From Klebsiella phage ST11-OXA245phi3.1, in the sequence record MK416009.1: DNA of 33,326 bases, one strand, 5' to 3'. The notes beneath the pieces were generated by a model that searched no databases, was not told where the DNA came from, and saw only the letters and a list, made by a program, of their open reading frames with translations. Positions 2,830 to 9,490 of the stretch are shown here, piece after piece. Every line of letters begins with the position of its first letter. Position 1 is the first letter of the stretch. The translations under genes and the position numbers were made by a program.

Positions 2830-3683
2830 GCACCATCCTGAAATGGGCGGGTAATAAAACCGCCATTATGCCAGAACTGAAAAAATACCTTCCTGCTGGC
2901 CCGCGACTGGTTGAACCTTTCGCGGGTTCTTGTGCTGTGATGATAGAGACGGATTACCCCAGCTATCTTGTTGCGGATATTAATCCTGATTTAATCAACC
3001 TCTATAAAAAGGTTGCTGCTGATTGCGAGGCGTTTATATCTCGTGCCAGAGCTTTATTTGAGGAAGCAAACAGGGAGGTGGCTTATTACAACATAAGGCA
3101 GGAGTTTAATTACTCCACTGAAATTACTGATTTCATGAAAGCGGTATATTTCCTGTATCTCAATCGTCATGGTTACCGTGGGTTATGTCGCTATAACAAG
3201 AGCGGGCATTTCAACATTCCCTATGGGAATTATAAAAATCCGTATTTCCCTGAAAAAGAAATTCGCAAATTTGCAGAAAAAGCCCAGCGAGCAACGTTTA
3301 TCTGCGCCAGCTTTGATGAAACGCTGGCGATGTTGAAGGCGGGGGATGTGGTGTATTGCGATCCGCCTTATTACGGTACGTTTTCCGGCTATCACACTGA
3401 TGGCTTCACTAAGGATGACCAGTATCACCTGGCATCCGTTCTTGAACATCGATCATCTGAAGGTCATCCGGTCATTGTTTCTAACAGTGACACATCCCTG
3501 ATTCGTTCGCTGTATCGCAATTTCACTCACCACTACATCAAGGCAAAACGCAGCATCGGCGTGTCGGCTGGCGAGAGTAAATCTGCAACAGAAATCATTG
3601 CTGTTTCCGGGGCGCGCTGCTGGGTGGGATTTGCTCCTTCGCGTGGCGTAGATAGTTCTGCTGTGTACGAGGTGCGTGTATGA
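2826..3683 (+). CDS. dam: DNA adenine methyltransferase (Dam, GATC-specific N6-MTase family).
   Basis: 285 aa from the ATG at 2826. The N-terminus [15 protein letters not shown] is the AdoMet-binding motif, and a DPPY catalytic motif ([15 protein letters not shown]) is present. It sits between the small early genes and A, as in Fels-2/WPhi-type P2 phages. Confidence 0.85.
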
Positions 3684-6094
3684 GTCATGACGATATGAGC
3701 AACTCTAGCGGCTTTAACGAGGCCGCTGCATCATTTTCATGGAACGGCCCGAAAAAGGCCATTAATCCTTATCTGGACCCGGCGGAAGTTGCGCCGGAGT
3801 CTGCACTTTCAAACCTGATCACTCTGTATGCTGCCGATAACGAGCAGGAACAACTGCGCCGCGAGGCACTGAGTGAGCAGGTCTGGGAGCGTTATTTCTT
3901 TAATGAATCCCGTGATCCTGTCCAGCGCGAAATGGAGCAGGATAAGCTCATTAGCCGGGTAAAGCTGGCGCATGAGCAGCAGCGTTTTAATCCAGACATG
4001 GTCATTCTGGCTGACGTCAACGCCCAGCCTTCCCATATCAGCAAGCCGCTGATGCAACGTATTGAATACTTCAGCAGCCTGGGCAGGCCAAAGGCTTATT
4101 CCCGCTATTTGCGTGAGACGATTAAGCCATGTCTGGAACGACTGGAGCATGTACGCGACAGTCAGCTATCCACTTCTTTTCGCTTTATGGCAAGCCATGA
4201 AGGGCTGGACGGCCTGCTGATCCTGCCTGAAATGAGTCAGGATCAGGTGAAACGCCTGTCTACCCTTGTCGCTGCGCATATGAGCATGTGTCTTGATGCC
4301 GCTTGTGGTGATTTGTACGCCACCGATGATGTTAAGCCAGAAGAAATCCGCAAGACATGGGAAAAGGTGGCAGCGGAAACCCTACGTTTGGATGTCATCC
4401 CGCCTGCGTTTGAGCAACTCCGTCGGAAAAGAAACCGCCGTAAACCAGTGCCCTATGAACTCATTCCGGGCTCGCTGGCGCGTATGCTGTGCGCCGACTG
4501 GTGGTATCGGAAATTGTGGAAGATGCGTTGTGAATGGCGGGAAGAGCAGTTGCGTGCTGTCTGCCTGGTCAGCAAAAAAGCATCTCCCTATGTCAGCTAT
4601 GAAGCTGTGATGCATAAACGTGAGCAGCGCCGTAAGTCGCTGGAGTTTTTCCGTTCTCATGAACTGGTGAACGAAGACGGCGACACGCTGGACATGGAAG
4701 ATGTGGTAAACGCCAGCTGCAGCAACCCGGCGCATCGCCGCAATGAGATGATGGCCTGTGTTAAAGGTCTGGAGCTTATCGCGGAAATGCGCGGTGACTG
4801 CGCCGTTTTCTACACCATTACCTGTCCGTCACGTTTCCATTCCACGCTCAATAACGGCAGACCCAATCCGACCTGGAAAAACGCGACGGTAAGACAAAGC
4901 AGCGATTATCTGGTCGATATGTTTGCTGCATTTCGTAAGGCGATGCACAAAGCCGGGTTGCGCTGGTATGGCGTGCGGGTGGCTGAGCCGCATCACGACG
5001 GCACAGTTCACTGGCACCTGTTGTGTTTCATGCGCAAAAAAGACCGCCGCGCCATTACTGCATTGTTGCGTAAGTTTGCTATCCGTGAAGACCGCGAGGA
5101 GCTGGGCAATAACACGGGGCCGCGCTTTAAGTCTGAGCTGATTAACCCGCGCAAAGGAACGCCGACAAGCTACATAGCGAAATACATCAGTAAGAACATT
5201 GACGGGCGTGGTCTGGCTGGCGAGATCAGCAAGGAAACGGGTAAATCTCTTCGTGATAACGCTGAATACGTGAATGCCTGGGCGTCTTTGCATCGTGTTC
5301 AGCAATTCCGCTTCTTTGGTATTCCGGGGCGTCAGGCTTACCGTGAACTGCGATTGCTGGCTGGTCAGGCGGCAAGGCAGCAGGGTGACAAAAAAGCAGG
5401 TGTGCCGGTACTGGATAACCCGCGCCTTGATGCCATTCTGGCTGCTGCTGATGCTGGTTGTTTTGCCACCTATATCATGAAGCAGGGAGGTGTACTGGTT
5501 CCCCGTAAATATCACCTCATCAGAACTGCTTATGAAATTAACGAAGAGCCGACCGCCTATGGCGATCACGGTATTCGTATTTATGGCATCTGGTCACCCA
5601 TTGCAGAGGGCAAGATCTGCACTCATGCAGTGAAGTGGAAAATGGTTCGTAAGGCCGTTGACGTTCAGGAGGCGGCAGCCGACCAGGGCGCTTGCGCCCC
5701 TTGGACTCGTGGCAATAACTGTCCCCTTGCTGAAAATTTGAACCAACAAGGGAAAGACAAATCAGCTGATGGGGATACCAGGACGGACATTACCCGCATG
5801 GATGACAAGGAGTTGCACGATTACCTGCACAGTATGAGCAAAAAAGAGCGCCGGGAACTGGCTGCAAGGTTACGCCTGGTGAAACCGAAACGGCGTAAAG
5901 ACTACAAACAGCGAATTACAGACCATCAGCGACAGCAGCTCGTCTATGAACTGAAGTCCAGAGGATTTGATGGCAGCGAGAAAGAGGTCGATTTACTCCT
6001 TCGCGGCGGCAGTATTCCATCAGGAGCAGGCCTGCGTATCTTCTATCGGAACCAGCGTTTGCAGGAAGATGATAAGTGGCGAAACCTGTATTAA
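3680..6094 (+). CDS. A: Replication initiation endonuclease, gene A (rolling-circle).
   Basis: 804 aa. The conserved catalytic tyrosine region [12 protein letters not shown] and the His motif [10 protein letters not shown] are present. Position and size match P2/186 gpA. Confidence 0.85.
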
Positions 6095-6186
6095 TTACGC
6101 GGGTTAACAATTCGTGCTCTTAATAATACCAGGCATATCAGGCTGATGAACGTAAAAAAACGTTTTACATCAGTAATATTATTATA

Positions 6187-6206
6187 TACTGTAAATATAA
6201 ACAGTG
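6187..6206. promoter_or_regulatory. LexA (SOS) box overlapping a sigma70-like promoter.
   Basis: TACTGTAAATATAAACAGTG fits CTGT-N8-ACAG with an AT-rich spacer and is close to the consensus TACTGTATATATATACAGTA. TTTACA and TATACT -35/-10-like hexamers lie immediately upstream and overlapping. The box sits 40 bp upstream of the ORF at 6248. Confidence 0.6.
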
Positions 6207-6247
6207 GCTATACATACAGTGTTGCTTGTGGTGTCATAGGAGGAAAG

Positions 6248-6436
6248 ATGCAGGACTATTTTTTGGAGTCTTTGAAGCTCCAGCGCATTGATTTTTTTCT
6301 TAAGCTTGTAGCGGCTAGTGAGTGTAGTGATGAAGAGAAGGGGCTGGCTTTGCAGTGGGTTTCTGAACTGACAGATGAACTCATGGCAAAAATCAGAACC
6401 CACGAATACAACCGCTCAATGGATGTCATCAGCTGA
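6248..6436 (+). CDS. Small hypothetical protein, first gene of the SOS-controlled operon and a candidate antirepressor.
   Basis: 62 aa with an AGGAGGA RBS 4-10 nt upstream. It is downstream of the LexA box and 10 nt upstream of the DinI-like gene. Confidence 0.45.
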   Translation: MQDYFLESLKLQRIDFFLKLVAASECSDEEKGLALQWVSELTDELMAKIRTHEYNRSMDVIS

Positions 6437-6446
6437 GGTGACTTTT

Positions 6447-6680
6447 ATGCGCATTGAAATAATGATCGATAAAGAGCAGAAGATTAGCCAGTCTACCCTG
6501 GACGCCCTTGAATCCGAGCTTTACCGCAATCTGCGCCCCCTGTATCCCAAAACGGTAATCCGTATCCGTAAAGGTAGCTCTAACGGTGTGGAACTGACCG
6601 GACTGCAACTGGACGAAGAAAGAAAACAAGTGATGAAAATTATGCAGAAGGTGTGGGAAGACGACAGCTGGCTGCATTGA
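6447..6680 (+). CDS. DinI-family protein (DinI/MsgA/Tum C-terminal-domain-like).
   Basis: 77 aa, MRIEIMIDKEQKISQSTLDALESELYRNL...VWEDDSWLH. It resembles E. coli DinI (MRIEVTIAKT...ETWESADDWF) in length, N-terminal MRIE start and acidic C-terminal W-rich tail. A GAGGTGA RBS is present. Confidence 0.7.
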   Translation: MRIEIMIDKEQKISQSTLDALESELYRNLRPLYPKTVIRIRKGSSNGVELTGLQLDEERKQVMKIMQKVWEDDSWLH

Positions 6681-6734
6681 TTTTGTCAATAGACGCTTGT
6701 TTTTTCTAATCAAAAAGGGTTACATATGAGTGAG

Positions 6735-6769
6735 AGGCGATGATCAATCAGATATCGCCTTGTTTTTTG
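6735..6769 (+). terminator. Rho-independent terminator of the SOS operon.
   Basis: AGGCGAT...ATCGCCT stem followed by TGTTTTTTG. Confidence 0.45.
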
Positions 6770-6794
6770 TCAAGAAAAGAATAATAGGCTAAAA

Positions 6795-7472
6795 ATGAAA
6801 ATTAATAATGTAGCGTTACCAATATCTCTTGCTGTAATCCTAACTGGTTGCGTACCACATGCTTCTAACCGAAATATCACTGCTATTGAAGTGGTGAAGC
6901 CTGCTATTGGGCAAAGTGCTACCGCCTACATGGGCGATCCCATTATCACATCTGCTACTGGATTTAAAACGGACGTATTAGAACTTGGTGCGGCTAATGG
7001 TGCATTGTCTTCTATCGCTGCTGGTACATATTGCAGTGAGGGGAATGGAATTTATCGCAATTATCATAACCCTCAAGCTGTTGCGTTAAAAAATCTCTAT
7101 GGGCAAATCGGTAACTATGTTGATTATGTTAGTTACGATGCTGCAAAAAATGAGATATCACCGCCAAATGGCACTTCTTATACTGCATCAGAAATTTCTA
7201 TCAAACGTGTTCCTGATGGGCTGTGTCGAGTGAGTAACTCATTGGTTAAGACTATCGAATACAATGGAAATGCAGGCGGTGTAATGAAGTTCACCTATCG
7301 TGAATTTGCAAACGATATGGCTCGTGCAGCATTTACAACAGATTTTTCTGTAGATTCTAAAGGAAGTGATGTTATCGCTTACAAAGGTGCCAAGTTCAAA
7401 GTGAACAAGGCTGATAACTCGTCTATTTCTTATACCATTATTTCTGGCTTTGACAAGGCTGTCACGTTCTAG
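6795..7472 (+). CDS. Predicted lipoprotein of unknown function (moron).
   Basis: 225 aa. The N-terminus MKINNVALPISLAVILTGC has a signal peptide plus a lipobox (LTG-C). It lies in a low-GC (~40%) region that departs from backbone composition. Confidence 0.7.
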   Translation: MKINNVALPISLAVILTGCVPHASNRNITAIEVVKPAIGQSATAYMGDPIITSATGFKTDVLELGAANGALSSIAAGTYCSEGNGIYRNYHNPQAVALKNLYGQIGNYVDYVSYDAAKNEISPPNGTSYTASEISIKRVPDGLCRVSNSLVKTIEYNGNAGGVMKFTYREFANDMARAAFTTDFSVDSKGSDVIAYKGAKFKVNKADNSSISYTIISGFDKAVTF

Positions 7473-7664: not shown

Positions 7665-7747
7665 CGCGCGCTGGAGGGATAAATGGAATTGAAAATGTAC
7701 CTTCTTAGAGATAACCTTCGCTAAAACTTTATTACTAAGGAGTGATA

Positions 7748-9490
7748 ATGAGTACCTGGAACCAAGCCTATTCTGCAAGAGAAGATTTGAAATCGTATGG
7801 TGATAATGGACTGGCTTTGTTTGCGTTAGCATTACATTTCAGAATTGATGATATTGATAGTGTCGCAGCAGAGTCCATTACCGATGGACATGACGATAAG
7901 AAATGTGACCTTGTGTATATTAATGAAGAAGAAGAATTTGCTGTACTTGCTCAATGCTATTTCTCAAGCAAAGATAGACAGGAAGCTCCAGCAAATAAAG
8001 CGAGTGATCTTAATATTGCTTTAGCATGGCTTCTGCAAAGAGATTTGCATGATGTACCCGATAGAATAAAATCTTCTGCTCAACAGATACGGACATCAAT
8101 CAAACAAGGGAAAATTAAAACTCTGTACGTTTGGTATGTTCATAACTTACCATCTTCAACAAATGTGGCTCAAGAGCTAATTACGGTTCAGCAGACAGCA
8201 GCAACTATTTTAAAACATGATTTTGAAGATGCTAAAATACAAGTGCATGCAATGGAAGTAGGCACTGAAAAGTTGACGGAATGGTATAGTGAATCACTAT
8301 CACCAATACTGGTTGATGAGATTTTCAATATTAAAGTCAGTGATGGTGGCTATGAAATAAAAGGAGATAATTGGAATGCATTCTGTACTACCATTCAGGG
8401 AAGAGATTTAGCTAGAGCGTACAAAAAGCATAAATTAAAAATATTTTCAGCAAATGTTAGAGACTACCTTGGATCAAGGTCATCTGATTCAAATATCAAT
8501 AATGGTATCCGTAACAGTGCGGAAAATTCAGCATCAGAATTTTGGGCATACAATAATGGCGTAACTGTTTTGGTTCATGAATATAAATTCAATGAAGCAT
8601 CAAAGAATCTTGAAATCAGAGGGATGTCAATAGTTAATGGAGCACAGACAACAGGTGCTTTAGGAACGCTGCCACGATTACCTCCAGAATCAGTTAAAGT
8701 CCAAGCTAGATTTATAAAAGTCAAAGATGCGGATGCTGATCTAATTCAGAATATAATTCAGTATAATAACAGTCAGAATAAAGTTGAAGCATCTGATTTC
8801 AGAAGCACAGACAAAATTCAAAAACGACTTAAAAATGAATTTGCTTCTATTCCTGATGCTGAATATGATGGAGGAAGACGAGGAGGTGCTGAAAGTGTCA
8901 TTCGTCGAAAAACTAATCTACTGCCTTCTTATACTGTTGGTCAAGCTTTGATGAGTTTCCATGGAGAGCCGACGATAGCTTATAATCAGCGATCTGCAAT
9001 TTGGACTAATGACTCTCATTATTCTAAGATTTTTAATGACAGTACAAAAGCTTCACATATTGTTTGTGCGTATTCTCTCATGCGGTGTATTGAGAACAAG
9101 AAAATAGCTTTGGCAAAGAAAGATACTCTTTCAAAAAATGATAGCGCTCAATTGGGATATCTCAGGCATCGTGGTTCAATACCTTTATTGTGCTCGGCTA
9201 TTGCCGAATGTTTGGAAAACTTTTTGGGCCGTCCCGTTCCTAATTTATTTAGAGTTTCGTTTGGAAGTACGGTCTCTCCTTCTCAGGCTGAAAGTATTTG
9301 GGAGCCAATTGTAGATGTGTGTCTGGCTTTAAGTAATCAGTTGCTGCCTGCACTGGTTGAAGGAGGGTTGAAAAGTCCTACAAAAGTTAAAGATTGTATA
9401 TCAAATTTTTCACAGCTTATTACTGCAACGGCCCAAATGAACCAGCCTGTATATGAGGCATTTGAGAAAAAAATCAAATCCGCATTCTAA
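7748..9490 (+). CDS. AIPR-like (abortive infection phage resistance, PF10592-like) protein. Candidate anti-phage defence cargo.
   Basis: 580 aa from the ATG at 7748, with a perfect AAGGAG SD 5 nt upstream. GC is about 36%. It contains an SIVNGAQTTGALGT motif, which I recall as the conserved AIPR core, and has no Walker A/B motifs. It lies at the cos-Q junction of the defence hotspot. Confidence 0.55.
   Translation: MSTWNQAYSAREDLKSYGDNGLALFALALHFRIDDIDSVAAESITDGHDDKKCDLVYINEEEEFAVLAQCYFSSKDRQEAPANKASDLNIALAWLLQRDLHDVPDRIKSSAQQIRTSIKQGKIKTLYVWYVHNLPSSTNVAQELITVQQTAATILKHDFEDAKIQVHAMEVGTEKLTEWYSESLSPILVDEIFNIKVSDGGYEIKGDNWNAFCTTIQGRDLARAYKKHKLKIFSANVRDYLGSRSSDSNINNGIRNSAENSASEFWAYNNGVTVLVHEYKFNEASKNLEIRGMSIVNGAQTTGALGTLPRLPPESVKVQARFIKVKDADADLIQNIIQYNNSQNKVEASDFRSTDKIQKRLKNEFASIPDAEYDGGRRGGAESVIRRKTNLLPSYTVGQALMSFHGEPTIAYNQRSAIWTNDSHYSKIFNDSTKASHIVCAYSLMRCIENKKIALAKKDTLSKNDSAQLGYLRHRGSIPLLCSAIAECLENFLGRPVPNLFRVSFGSTVSPSQAESIWEPIVDVCLALSNQLLPALVEGGLKSPTKVKDCISNFSQLITATAQMNQPVYEAFEKKIKSAF

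Follow-up and report, generated by a model that had tools for sequence, protein, structure and literature searches.

The sequence studied here is that of Klebsiella phage ST11-OXA245phi3.1 (record MK416009.1), and "the window" denotes the whole stretch that was analysed, 33,326 nucleotides (nt) comprising the early and late regions of a P2/186-like (Peduoviridae) prophage. The subject is a small two-gene unit that lies directly 3' of replication gene A, where the early region ends on the right and the portal/cos region follows, and that we read as the SOS-induction operon of the prophage, with the tum gene of coliphage 186 split into tumA and tumB. The promoter region is located in a 150-nt gap 3' of gene A. 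From left to right, the unit consists of the following features (aa, amino acids; ORF, open reading frame):

6164-6169, + strand: -35 hexamer TTTACA, the equivalent of that of 186 p95, read from the sequence
6187-6206: LexA (SOS) box 1, TACTGTAAATATAAACAGTG, whose first six bases TACTGT (6187-6192) form the -10 hexamer after a 17-nt spacer
6202-6221: LexA box 2, CAGTGGCTATACATACAGTG, of the form GTG-N10-CAG, 14/20, sharing 5 nt with box 1
6238-6243, + strand: Shine-Dalgarno sequence AGGAGG of the tumA-like ORF, conserved in relatives
6248-6436, + strand: tumA-like gene, 62 aa, ATG at 6248 and TGA at 6434-6436
6435-6440, + strand: Shine-Dalgarno sequence GAGGTG of the DinI-like ORF, overlapping the tumA stop codon
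6447-6680, + strand: tumB or dinI-like gene, 77 aa, 10 nt (6437-6446) after tumA
6735-6768, + strand: intrinsic-terminator-like hairpin, stem AGGCGAT/ATCGCCT (6735-6760) followed by TTGTTTTTT, seen in the fold

A first-pass annotation, made from the letters and their ORFs alone, had described a near-consensus SOS box overlapping a promoter, a strongly translated 62-aa ORF, a DinI-family gene 10 nt later and a terminator at the end of the unit. It had placed these at the position of 186 tum, in a genome with a 186-type cII and a CI repressor without S24 peptidase motif, and had proposed that the unit is a split form of Tum. The layout was recovered in full, including the hairpin and T-run of the terminator, and the context was borne out by matches to Phage_GPA and Phage_CP76 and by the Pfam scan of CI. 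The proposed function is supported by the Tum homology of both ORFs, with the 62-aa protein aligning to residues 5-48 of 186 Tum by profile and the 77-aa protein to residues 71-145 by BLASTP, and by the requirement for the nearly identical allele of prophage DuoHS, as set out below.

The 62-aa protein has no family in Pfam, NCBIfam or PADLOC, and to that extent the earlier statement that it lacks a recognisable domain was correct. It did not stand beyond these databases: the protein falls into phrog_698 (E 3.6e-38), which PHROGs labels 'unknown function', and a family profile connects it to Tum. A hidden Markov model (HMM) of 28 diverse members plus the window protein aligned to 186 Tum at residues 5-48 with a score of 35.5 bits and an E-value of 4e-13 in this comparison, and hhalign of the family against 186 Tum gave 94.4% with an E-value of 9e-8. 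The family and Tum have in common the motif E-x5-[QE]R[IV]-x10-C-x7-A[LI]-x[WL]-x2-E[LI], and the near-invariant positions of TumA are E7, R13, C26, A34, W37, E40, and L41. By this match, the 62-aa protein corresponds to the half of Tum that is N-terminal and not DinI-like. Judged by its sequence, it is a member of the TumA/Tum N-terminal family, i.e. the antirepressor half, and it is called TumA from here on. Among 1.84 billion representative proteins, phmmer detected 66 relatives, nearly all of them stand-alone proteins of ~60-75 residues and none of them fused to DinI; the fused 186 Tum was thus unreachable from one sequence, and a family profile was needed. The AlphaFold model of TumA is a two-helix hairpin (H2-23 and H28-61) with a pLDDT (predicted local distance difference test) of 86.7. 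Searching the PDB with the sequence returned nothing; with the model, Foldseek retrieved only helical hairpins of a generic kind there (best E 1.2), none of them informative as a neighbour.

Copies of the unit are very common. The 700-bp block that holds it has a perfect (100%) match in Klebsiella phage ST437-OXA245phi4.2 and reaches 97.4% identity with Salmonella Fels-2 and ~98% with many E. coli prophages; among 5426 complete E. coli genomes, 1125 contain it. The order of gpA followed by the SOS operon is shared by 186, Fels-2, PSP3, DuoHS, and all metagenomic relatives. While the first-pass annotation had left the true antirepressor open, the upstream gene had already been assigned this role. 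The GenBank record of PSP3 lists tumA ('similar to 5' end 186 tum; UV induction of prophage') and tumB, the Fels-2 record refers its DinI gene to PSP3 TumB, and tum has been described as split in two in both phages, with the antirepressor upstream and the DinI homologue downstream (Lemire 2011, PMC3121763). Genetic evidence comes from DuoHS, a prophage of E. coli HS that has the same promoter, ORFs, and terminator at ~98% identity, and in which ECHS_RS04495 (62 aa, 'hypothetical protein'), lying beside a DinI-like gene, is 98% identical to the window TumA. In the Phollow study, an in-frame tum deletion was made in this prophage (PMC12055606) with the primers NHR24 and NHR28, which carry GTGGTGTCATAGGAGGAAAGATG+TGA and ATAGGAGGAAAGATG+TGAGGTGACTTTTATGCGCATTG (PMC12055606). 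Both match the window perfectly, at 6228-6250 and 6434-6456, and fuse the ATG to the TGA of the 62-aa ORF. From these positions it follows that the gene deleted was exactly the 62-aa ORF (ECHS_RS04495), with dinI left intact. The deletion, and likewise lexA(Ind-), abolishes the mitomycin C induction of DuoHS (PMC12055606). As the phenotype arises with dinI intact, the small protein is the antirepressor component. According to papers citing Shearwin 1998, 186 Tum was shown biochemically to bind CI and to block its operator binding, and according to papers citing Bunny 2002, Fels-2 makes a lexA-null mutation lethal in Salmonella. The split Tum module is thus already known: it has been in print since 2002-2011, and in 2025 the deletion and characterisation of an allele with 98% identity followed.

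TumA presumably targets CI. The 311-aa CI of the window matches Phage_CI_repr in two stretches (E 8.7e-58) and Phage_CI_C (E 1.3e-26), and Peptidase_S24 gave no hit to it at E-values up to 0.1, so that it is not a repressor of the lambda type, i.e. an S24 protein with an Ala-Gly site and a Ser/Lys dyad. The two stretches are tandem copies of a helix-turn-helix (HTH) domain (residues ~20-110 and 126-197; 98.6 bits in internal BLAST) that precede a single Phage_CI_C domain. Full-length CIs built in this way are also encoded by Klebsiella phage 4LV2017 and the Kp48xx phages, at 52% identity, and by PSP3, whose CI has 286 aa; those of 186, Fels-2, and DuoHS have one HTH. The best-surviving alternative, which we hold to be improbable, starts from this difference: the operon would be expressed in the SOS response, but TumA would be mismatched with the resident tandem-HTH CI and would not induce its own prophage, acting in trans at most or being a relic. 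The window CI, with its extra N-terminal HTH copy, is indeed only 40-45% identical overall to the DuoHS and Fels-2 CIs that work with this TumA allele, the identity to these CIs in the C-terminal domain is 24-32%, and the early regions of P2-like phages are mosaic, with TumA 98-100% identical beside very different CIs. On the other hand, the HTH adjacent to the C-terminal domain is 60-78% identical to the HTHs of the partner CIs of the same allele, the same TumA allele stands beside another tandem-HTH CI in 4LV2017 and the Kp48xx phages, PSP3 also combines a two-HTH CI with tumA/tumB, and the operator, the Shine-Dalgarno sequences, and both ORFs of the window are intact.

The CI variants that occur beside one TumA allele also bear on where TumA may act. 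Across seven phages with TumA 98-100% identical, the HTH domains of CI are 57-79% and the C-terminal domains 24-59% (median 29%) identical. In a comparison of 14 phages, which are related and hence confounded by shared ancestry, TumA identity was correlated with the identity of the CI N-terminal domain with a Spearman coefficient of 0.80 (Mantel p ~0.001), while the value for the C-terminal domain was 0.28 (p 0.08). Since the sample is small and phylogenetically structured, the covariation with the N-terminal domain is treated as a lead. These comparisons would fit a TumA that acts on the HTH/DNA-binding domain of CI and tolerates many CI variants.

The product of the second gene is a clear member of the DinI family. 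It matches PF06183 (DinI) with an E-value of 6.6e-23 and 81.3 bits (cut-off 24.2) over profile positions 1-63 of 63, and phrog_189 over profile positions 71-148 of 151. To 186 Tum it has 41% identity over residues 71-145 (E 3e-24), and its alignment to the E. coli DinI structure 1GHH (residues 1-77; E 2.7e-6) is full-length. Its score against the NCBIfam DinI equivalog, 42.7, is below the cut-off of 111, which indicates a DinI paralogue and not the host DinI. Family membership suggests that the protein binds RecA filaments and modulates their co-protease activity. A second alternative, which we consider very improbable, would make the DinI-like protein, or an obligate pair of the two proteins, the real effector, with the 62-aa protein serving as a chaperone or adaptor, for example in a non-covalent two-domain Tum. 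It draws on the presence of both parts in one chain in 186 Tum and on the spacing of the genes, which are 10 nt apart with the ORF2 Shine-Dalgarno sequence overlapping the ORF1 stop, an arrangement that suggests balanced co-expression. It is contradicted by the block of induction in the DuoHS deletion with dinI intact, by the assignment of the antirepressor activity of PSP3 to the upstream gene (PMC3121763), by the separate genes for DinI and antirepressor, in reversed order, in Gifsy phages (PMC3121763), and by at least four diverged lineages that have a LexA-boxed tumA without dinI. In these four (P0147, P0152, P0168, and P0172), gpA is followed by a LexA box and the tumA-like gene, which in turn directly precedes convergent ogr and portal genes; in lineage P0141 the DinI partner is present. 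Since the dinI-less lineages keep tumA, tumA is the core of the module and DinI is accessory. Across the sequences compared, DinI is fused to TumA in 186, juxtaposed in PSP3, Fels-2, and the window, and absent in some lineages.

Most of the TumA homologues from dinI-less lineages (P0147, P0149, P0152, P0155, P0169, P0172, P0177, P0181, L024, and L025) have a conserved Gly-rich C-terminal tail (…K-N/S-P-Q-x-G-G-…-G-x-[LF]-Q), which the window TumA does not have. This tail may be a degron or an additional interaction motif that substitutes for DinI.

At the junction of the two genes, a scanner detected a 6-bp hairpin at 6425-6442 (GTCATC…GGTGAC) that encloses the tumA stop codon and the dinI Shine-Dalgarno sequence and would suggest translational coupling. 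The hairpin is kept solely in near-identical relatives; the junctions of MLG42, SopEPhi, and ST437phi4.1 differ and give no covariation support. As it is not conserved further, translational coupling is not claimed. The terminator hairpin at 6735-6768 is conserved in DuoHS and Fels-2, and the partial terminator t95a of 186 is found in the equivalent place. The consensus scanner missed it because its loop is longer than 8 nt; the z-score of the whole-segment fold at this position was -1.4.

Box 1 (TACTGTAAATATAAACAGTG) agrees with the 20-nt LexA consensus at 17/20 positions and is the single such site in the 33.3-kb window. Sites as good as this over the full 20-mer (at least 17/20) appeared in 0/100 shuffles, while the looser pattern CTGT-N8-ACAG occurred at least once in 45/100 and is hence not significant alone. 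Of ~20 related loci, all except that of Klebsiella phage ST15-OXA48phi14.1 have a LexA box of 16-19/20 directly ahead of the tumA-like gene. In 186, PSP3, Fels-2, DuoHS, and five metagenomic/genomic relatives (37-54% protein identity), the box is situated 3-47 nt 5' of the start of the small gene, in upstream DNA that is unalignable, and only one other box of 16-19/20 quality was present in the first 18 fetched loci (91.7 kb). Taking these comparisons together, conservation is stronger evidence for a real SOS box than the shuffle statistics. The overlap of box and promoter claimed in the first-pass annotation is upheld by analogy with 186 p95 and by conservation, not by the scanner. The layout TTTACA-17-TACTGT mirrors that of the annotated 186 p95, in which the -10 hexamer is the first six bases of the LexA box, and TT(T/C)ACA recurs at equal distance from the SOS box in Fels-2, DuoHS, MLG42, SopEPhi, ST437phi4.1, ESSI2_ev040, and L016, whose flanks have diverged. 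That the box is a chance palindrome in AT-rich intergenic DNA, with the ORFs constitutive or on an upstream early transcript, could appeal to the silent promoter scan and the frequency of the loose pattern, and is as good as refuted by the shuffles of the full 20-mer, by the conservation of the box within unalignable flanks, and by the block of DuoHS induction in lexA(Ind-).

The first-pass annotation had missed the second SOS box at 6202-6221, which overlaps the first. Such dual boxes are kept, despite base changes, in nine phage lineages; with base changes they are seen in DuoHS, Fels-2, 4LV2017, Cartapus, Kp4848-2, MLG42, SopEPhi, and ST437phi4.1, and a single SOS box is found in 186, PSP3, ESSI2_ev040, Cronobacter ESSI-2, and L016. 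A 49-nt query over the operator gave >1,100 plasmid matches, mostly to small mobilizable plasmids, and on the two Col plasmids that were opened the match is positioned 38 nt 5' of the colicin gene. The 35-nt operator ACTGTAAATATAAACAGTGGCTATACATACAGTG aligns in register with the colicin operator ACTGTATATAAAACCAGTGGTTATATATACAGTA, and the overlapping SOS boxes of colicin genes bind two LexA dimers (PMC2994835). In its sequence, the tumA operator is a colicin-type pair of overlapping SOS boxes. By analogy, it may be occupied by two LexA dimers, with a tighter or delayed derepression and a higher induction threshold. In the literature accessible to us, we found no mention of a dual operator ahead of tumA.

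Some further observations concern the operator and its relatives. The likeness of the colicin and tumA promoters runs slightly past both SOS boxes into the leader (…GTCATAGGAGG vs …GTCAAAGAGGA; L014:1501-1549, L015:1501-1549). The scanner also called a promoter-like site on the - strand at 6181-6210 (TAGCCA-18-TATAAT, 10/12), which spans the SOS boxes and is directed leftward, towards the 3' end of gene A; the AT-rich palindromes probably produce it incidentally. In ST15-OXA48phi14.1 (L021, upstream of 7310), the right arm of box 1 is changed from CAG to CAT (…ATAAACATTGG…) and TumA carries K19R; this box could be a naturally derepressed or weakened operator variant. DuoHS has a second LexA box, TACTGTATGTATAACCAGTG (16/20; L007:2835-2854), in its int-cI interval, shortly beyond the 3' terminus of int (1774-2805); relative to ECHS_RS23290 (2994-3185), a small - strand ORF, this box is ~140 nt downstream. 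The present window begins at cI.

Based on the anatomy of the unit, the homology of each cistron to one half of Tum, the non-cleavable CI, and the conserved association of a LexA box with tumA, all observed here, we consider the unit to be a split SOS operon, of the tumA/tumB form, in a P2-like prophage of the 186/Fels-2 type, at a probability of roughly 85% for this reading including the following mechanism. In the undamaged lysogen, LexA would sit on the operator and keep the operon silent, probably as two dimers on the overlapping boxes that cover the -10 region and the transcription start. Upon DNA damage, activated RecA would promote the self-cleavage of LexA, and the operon would be transcribed up to the terminator at ~6768. 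TumA, a predicted helical hairpin, would then bind the non-cleavable CI, most likely at its N-terminal HTH domain, and remove it from its operators, which would derepress the lytic promoter. The DinI homologue would not be an antirepressor; its most likely role is to bind RecA filaments and adjust how strong or how long the SOS signal is, and the 186 record states that the DinI-like short forms of Tum modulate SOS induction. The need for the 62-aa gene and for a cleavable LexA is taken from the other work on the 98%-identical allele.

Apart from the shared ancestry in the CI comparison, several points weigh against this reading. The DuoHS deletion demonstrates the necessity of the gene, not its sufficiency or a direct binding of CI, and it could also lower the translation of DinI if the two genes are translationally coupled. 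The induction evidence belongs to the DuoHS allele in E. coli HS, 98% identical to that of the window, whose own prophage is known from sequence. Compared pairwise by BLASTP, the 62-aa protein has no hit to 186 Tum or PSP3 TumA, and the family HMM matches PSP3 TumA only weakly (E 0.003). The consensus scanner called no + strand promoter at the operon. Finally, the sensitivity of the window CI to the window TumA is assumed, given how far this CI has diverged.

The genes around the operon in the window are arranged as follows:

1-936, - strand: cI, 311 aa, presumed TumA target, Pfam Phage_CI_repr and Phage_CI_C
between cI and cII: apl-like ORF
following the apl-like ORF: cII of the 186 type, Phage_CP76, E 4e-42
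between cII and gene A: Dam methylase gene
3680-6094: replication gene A, Phage_GPA, E 1e-127
between the SOS operon and the portal gene: two cargo genes
downstream of the SOS operon, - strand: portal and terminase genes, convergent with the operon

The first cargo gene (6795-7472, + strand) encodes a 225-aa protein with a lipoprotein-like N-terminus (…LAVILTGC) and without a family match in Pfam, NCBIfam or PADLOC. It is 99% identical to Fels-2 STM2726, and DuoHS carries one too. The gene occupies the place of 186 orf97, and it was considered as such, but it is not homologous to orf97 and matches STM2726 instead. If the terminator at ~6768 is partial, as 186 t95a is, the gene may be expressed by read-through from the SOS promoter. 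The second cargo gene (7742-9490, + strand) encodes a protein of 582 aa that matches the AIPR domain PF10592 (E 2e-34) and PADLOC AbiU (E 2e-34). By these matches, it is a defence gene of the abortive-infection type. The slot for cargo in which it lies, flanked by the SOS operon and the portal gene, is variable; relatives have other genes there, for example for a reverse transcriptase, a TIR protein or a DUF6575 protein.

As a discovery the operon carries little weight, as the module has already been genetically dissected in a 98%-identical copy. Its remaining value lies in an annotation gap, in the dual operator, and in a single TumA allele that serves many CI types. The antirepressor is a 'hypothetical protein' in essentially every genome record and has no Pfam or NCBIfam model, and yet TumA decides whether DNA-damaging antibiotics elicit a response from a prophage that about one-fifth of the complete E. 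coli genomes carry. The dual operator and the combination of one TumA allele with many CI types bear on induction thresholds and on cross-talk among P2-like prophages. Tentatively, and as a proposal that we think has a smaller chance of being right than wrong, the three features may be combined: a colicin-type operator would have replaced the 186-type single box in the Fels-2/Elveevirus group, TumA would be a 'master key' for CI repressors, and DinI an optional add-on that prolongs the signal. If this is true, the double operator would make the commitment to lysis depend on a deeper or longer depletion of LexA than ordinary SOS genes need. The near-invariant TumA allele would recognise the conserved HTH of many divergent CIs, those with tandem HTHs included, and could cross-induce co-resident P2-like prophages, as Gifsy antirepressors do.

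Among known systems, the closest are DuoHS (ECHS_RS04495/ECHS_RS04500) and Fels-2 (STM2728/STM2726.1), which have the same promoter, dual SOS box, ORFs, and terminator at ~97-98% nt identity. Their TumA is 98% identical to that of the window, with 1/62 residues different, and is encoded in the same place after gpA. They differ in the partner CI, which has a single HTH in both DuoHS (189 aa) and Fels-2 (210 aa) but is a 311-aa tandem-HTH protein in the window, and in the downstream cargo, where the window has the AbiU/AIPR gene. PSP3 is alike in that gene A is followed by one LexA box, a small antirepressor gene and, downstream of it, a DinI-like gene, and in having a CI with two HTH copies. 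However, its TumA is very diverged (~13% identity to the window TumA), its SOS box is single (19/20) whereas that of the window is dual, and its two ORFs are in one frame, separated by a stop and one codon, while those of the window are in different frames and 10 nt apart.

Phage 186 resembles the window in the position of the module, in the LexA-repressed promoter with its -10 hexamer in the box, in the antirepressor N-terminal part and the DinI-like C-terminal part, in the partial terminator, and in the combination of a non-cleavable CI with a CII of the same type. On the other hand, 186 Tum is one chain of 146 aa, from which nested internal starts also give the DinI-like part alone, the SOS box is single, and orf97 is not homologous to the next ORF of the window. 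The colicin operons share with the tumA operon the overlapping SOS boxes and a regulated product that kills the producing cell; their downstream genes are unrelated to tumA, and the likeness of the operators would reflect either shared ancestry or convergence on a geometry for two dimers. In the dinI-gfoA operons of Gifsy-1 and Gifsy-3 and in AntC of N15, LexA likewise represses a small antirepressor of a non-cleavable repressor. In the Gifsy phages, the antirepressor gene is transcribed together with that of a DinI homologue, and the antirepressors can also act on repressors other than their own (PMC3121763). These phages, lambdoid or N15, have another repressor family and the reversed gene order, dinI first, and the likeness of their antirepressors to TumA is drawn here from the regulatory logic.

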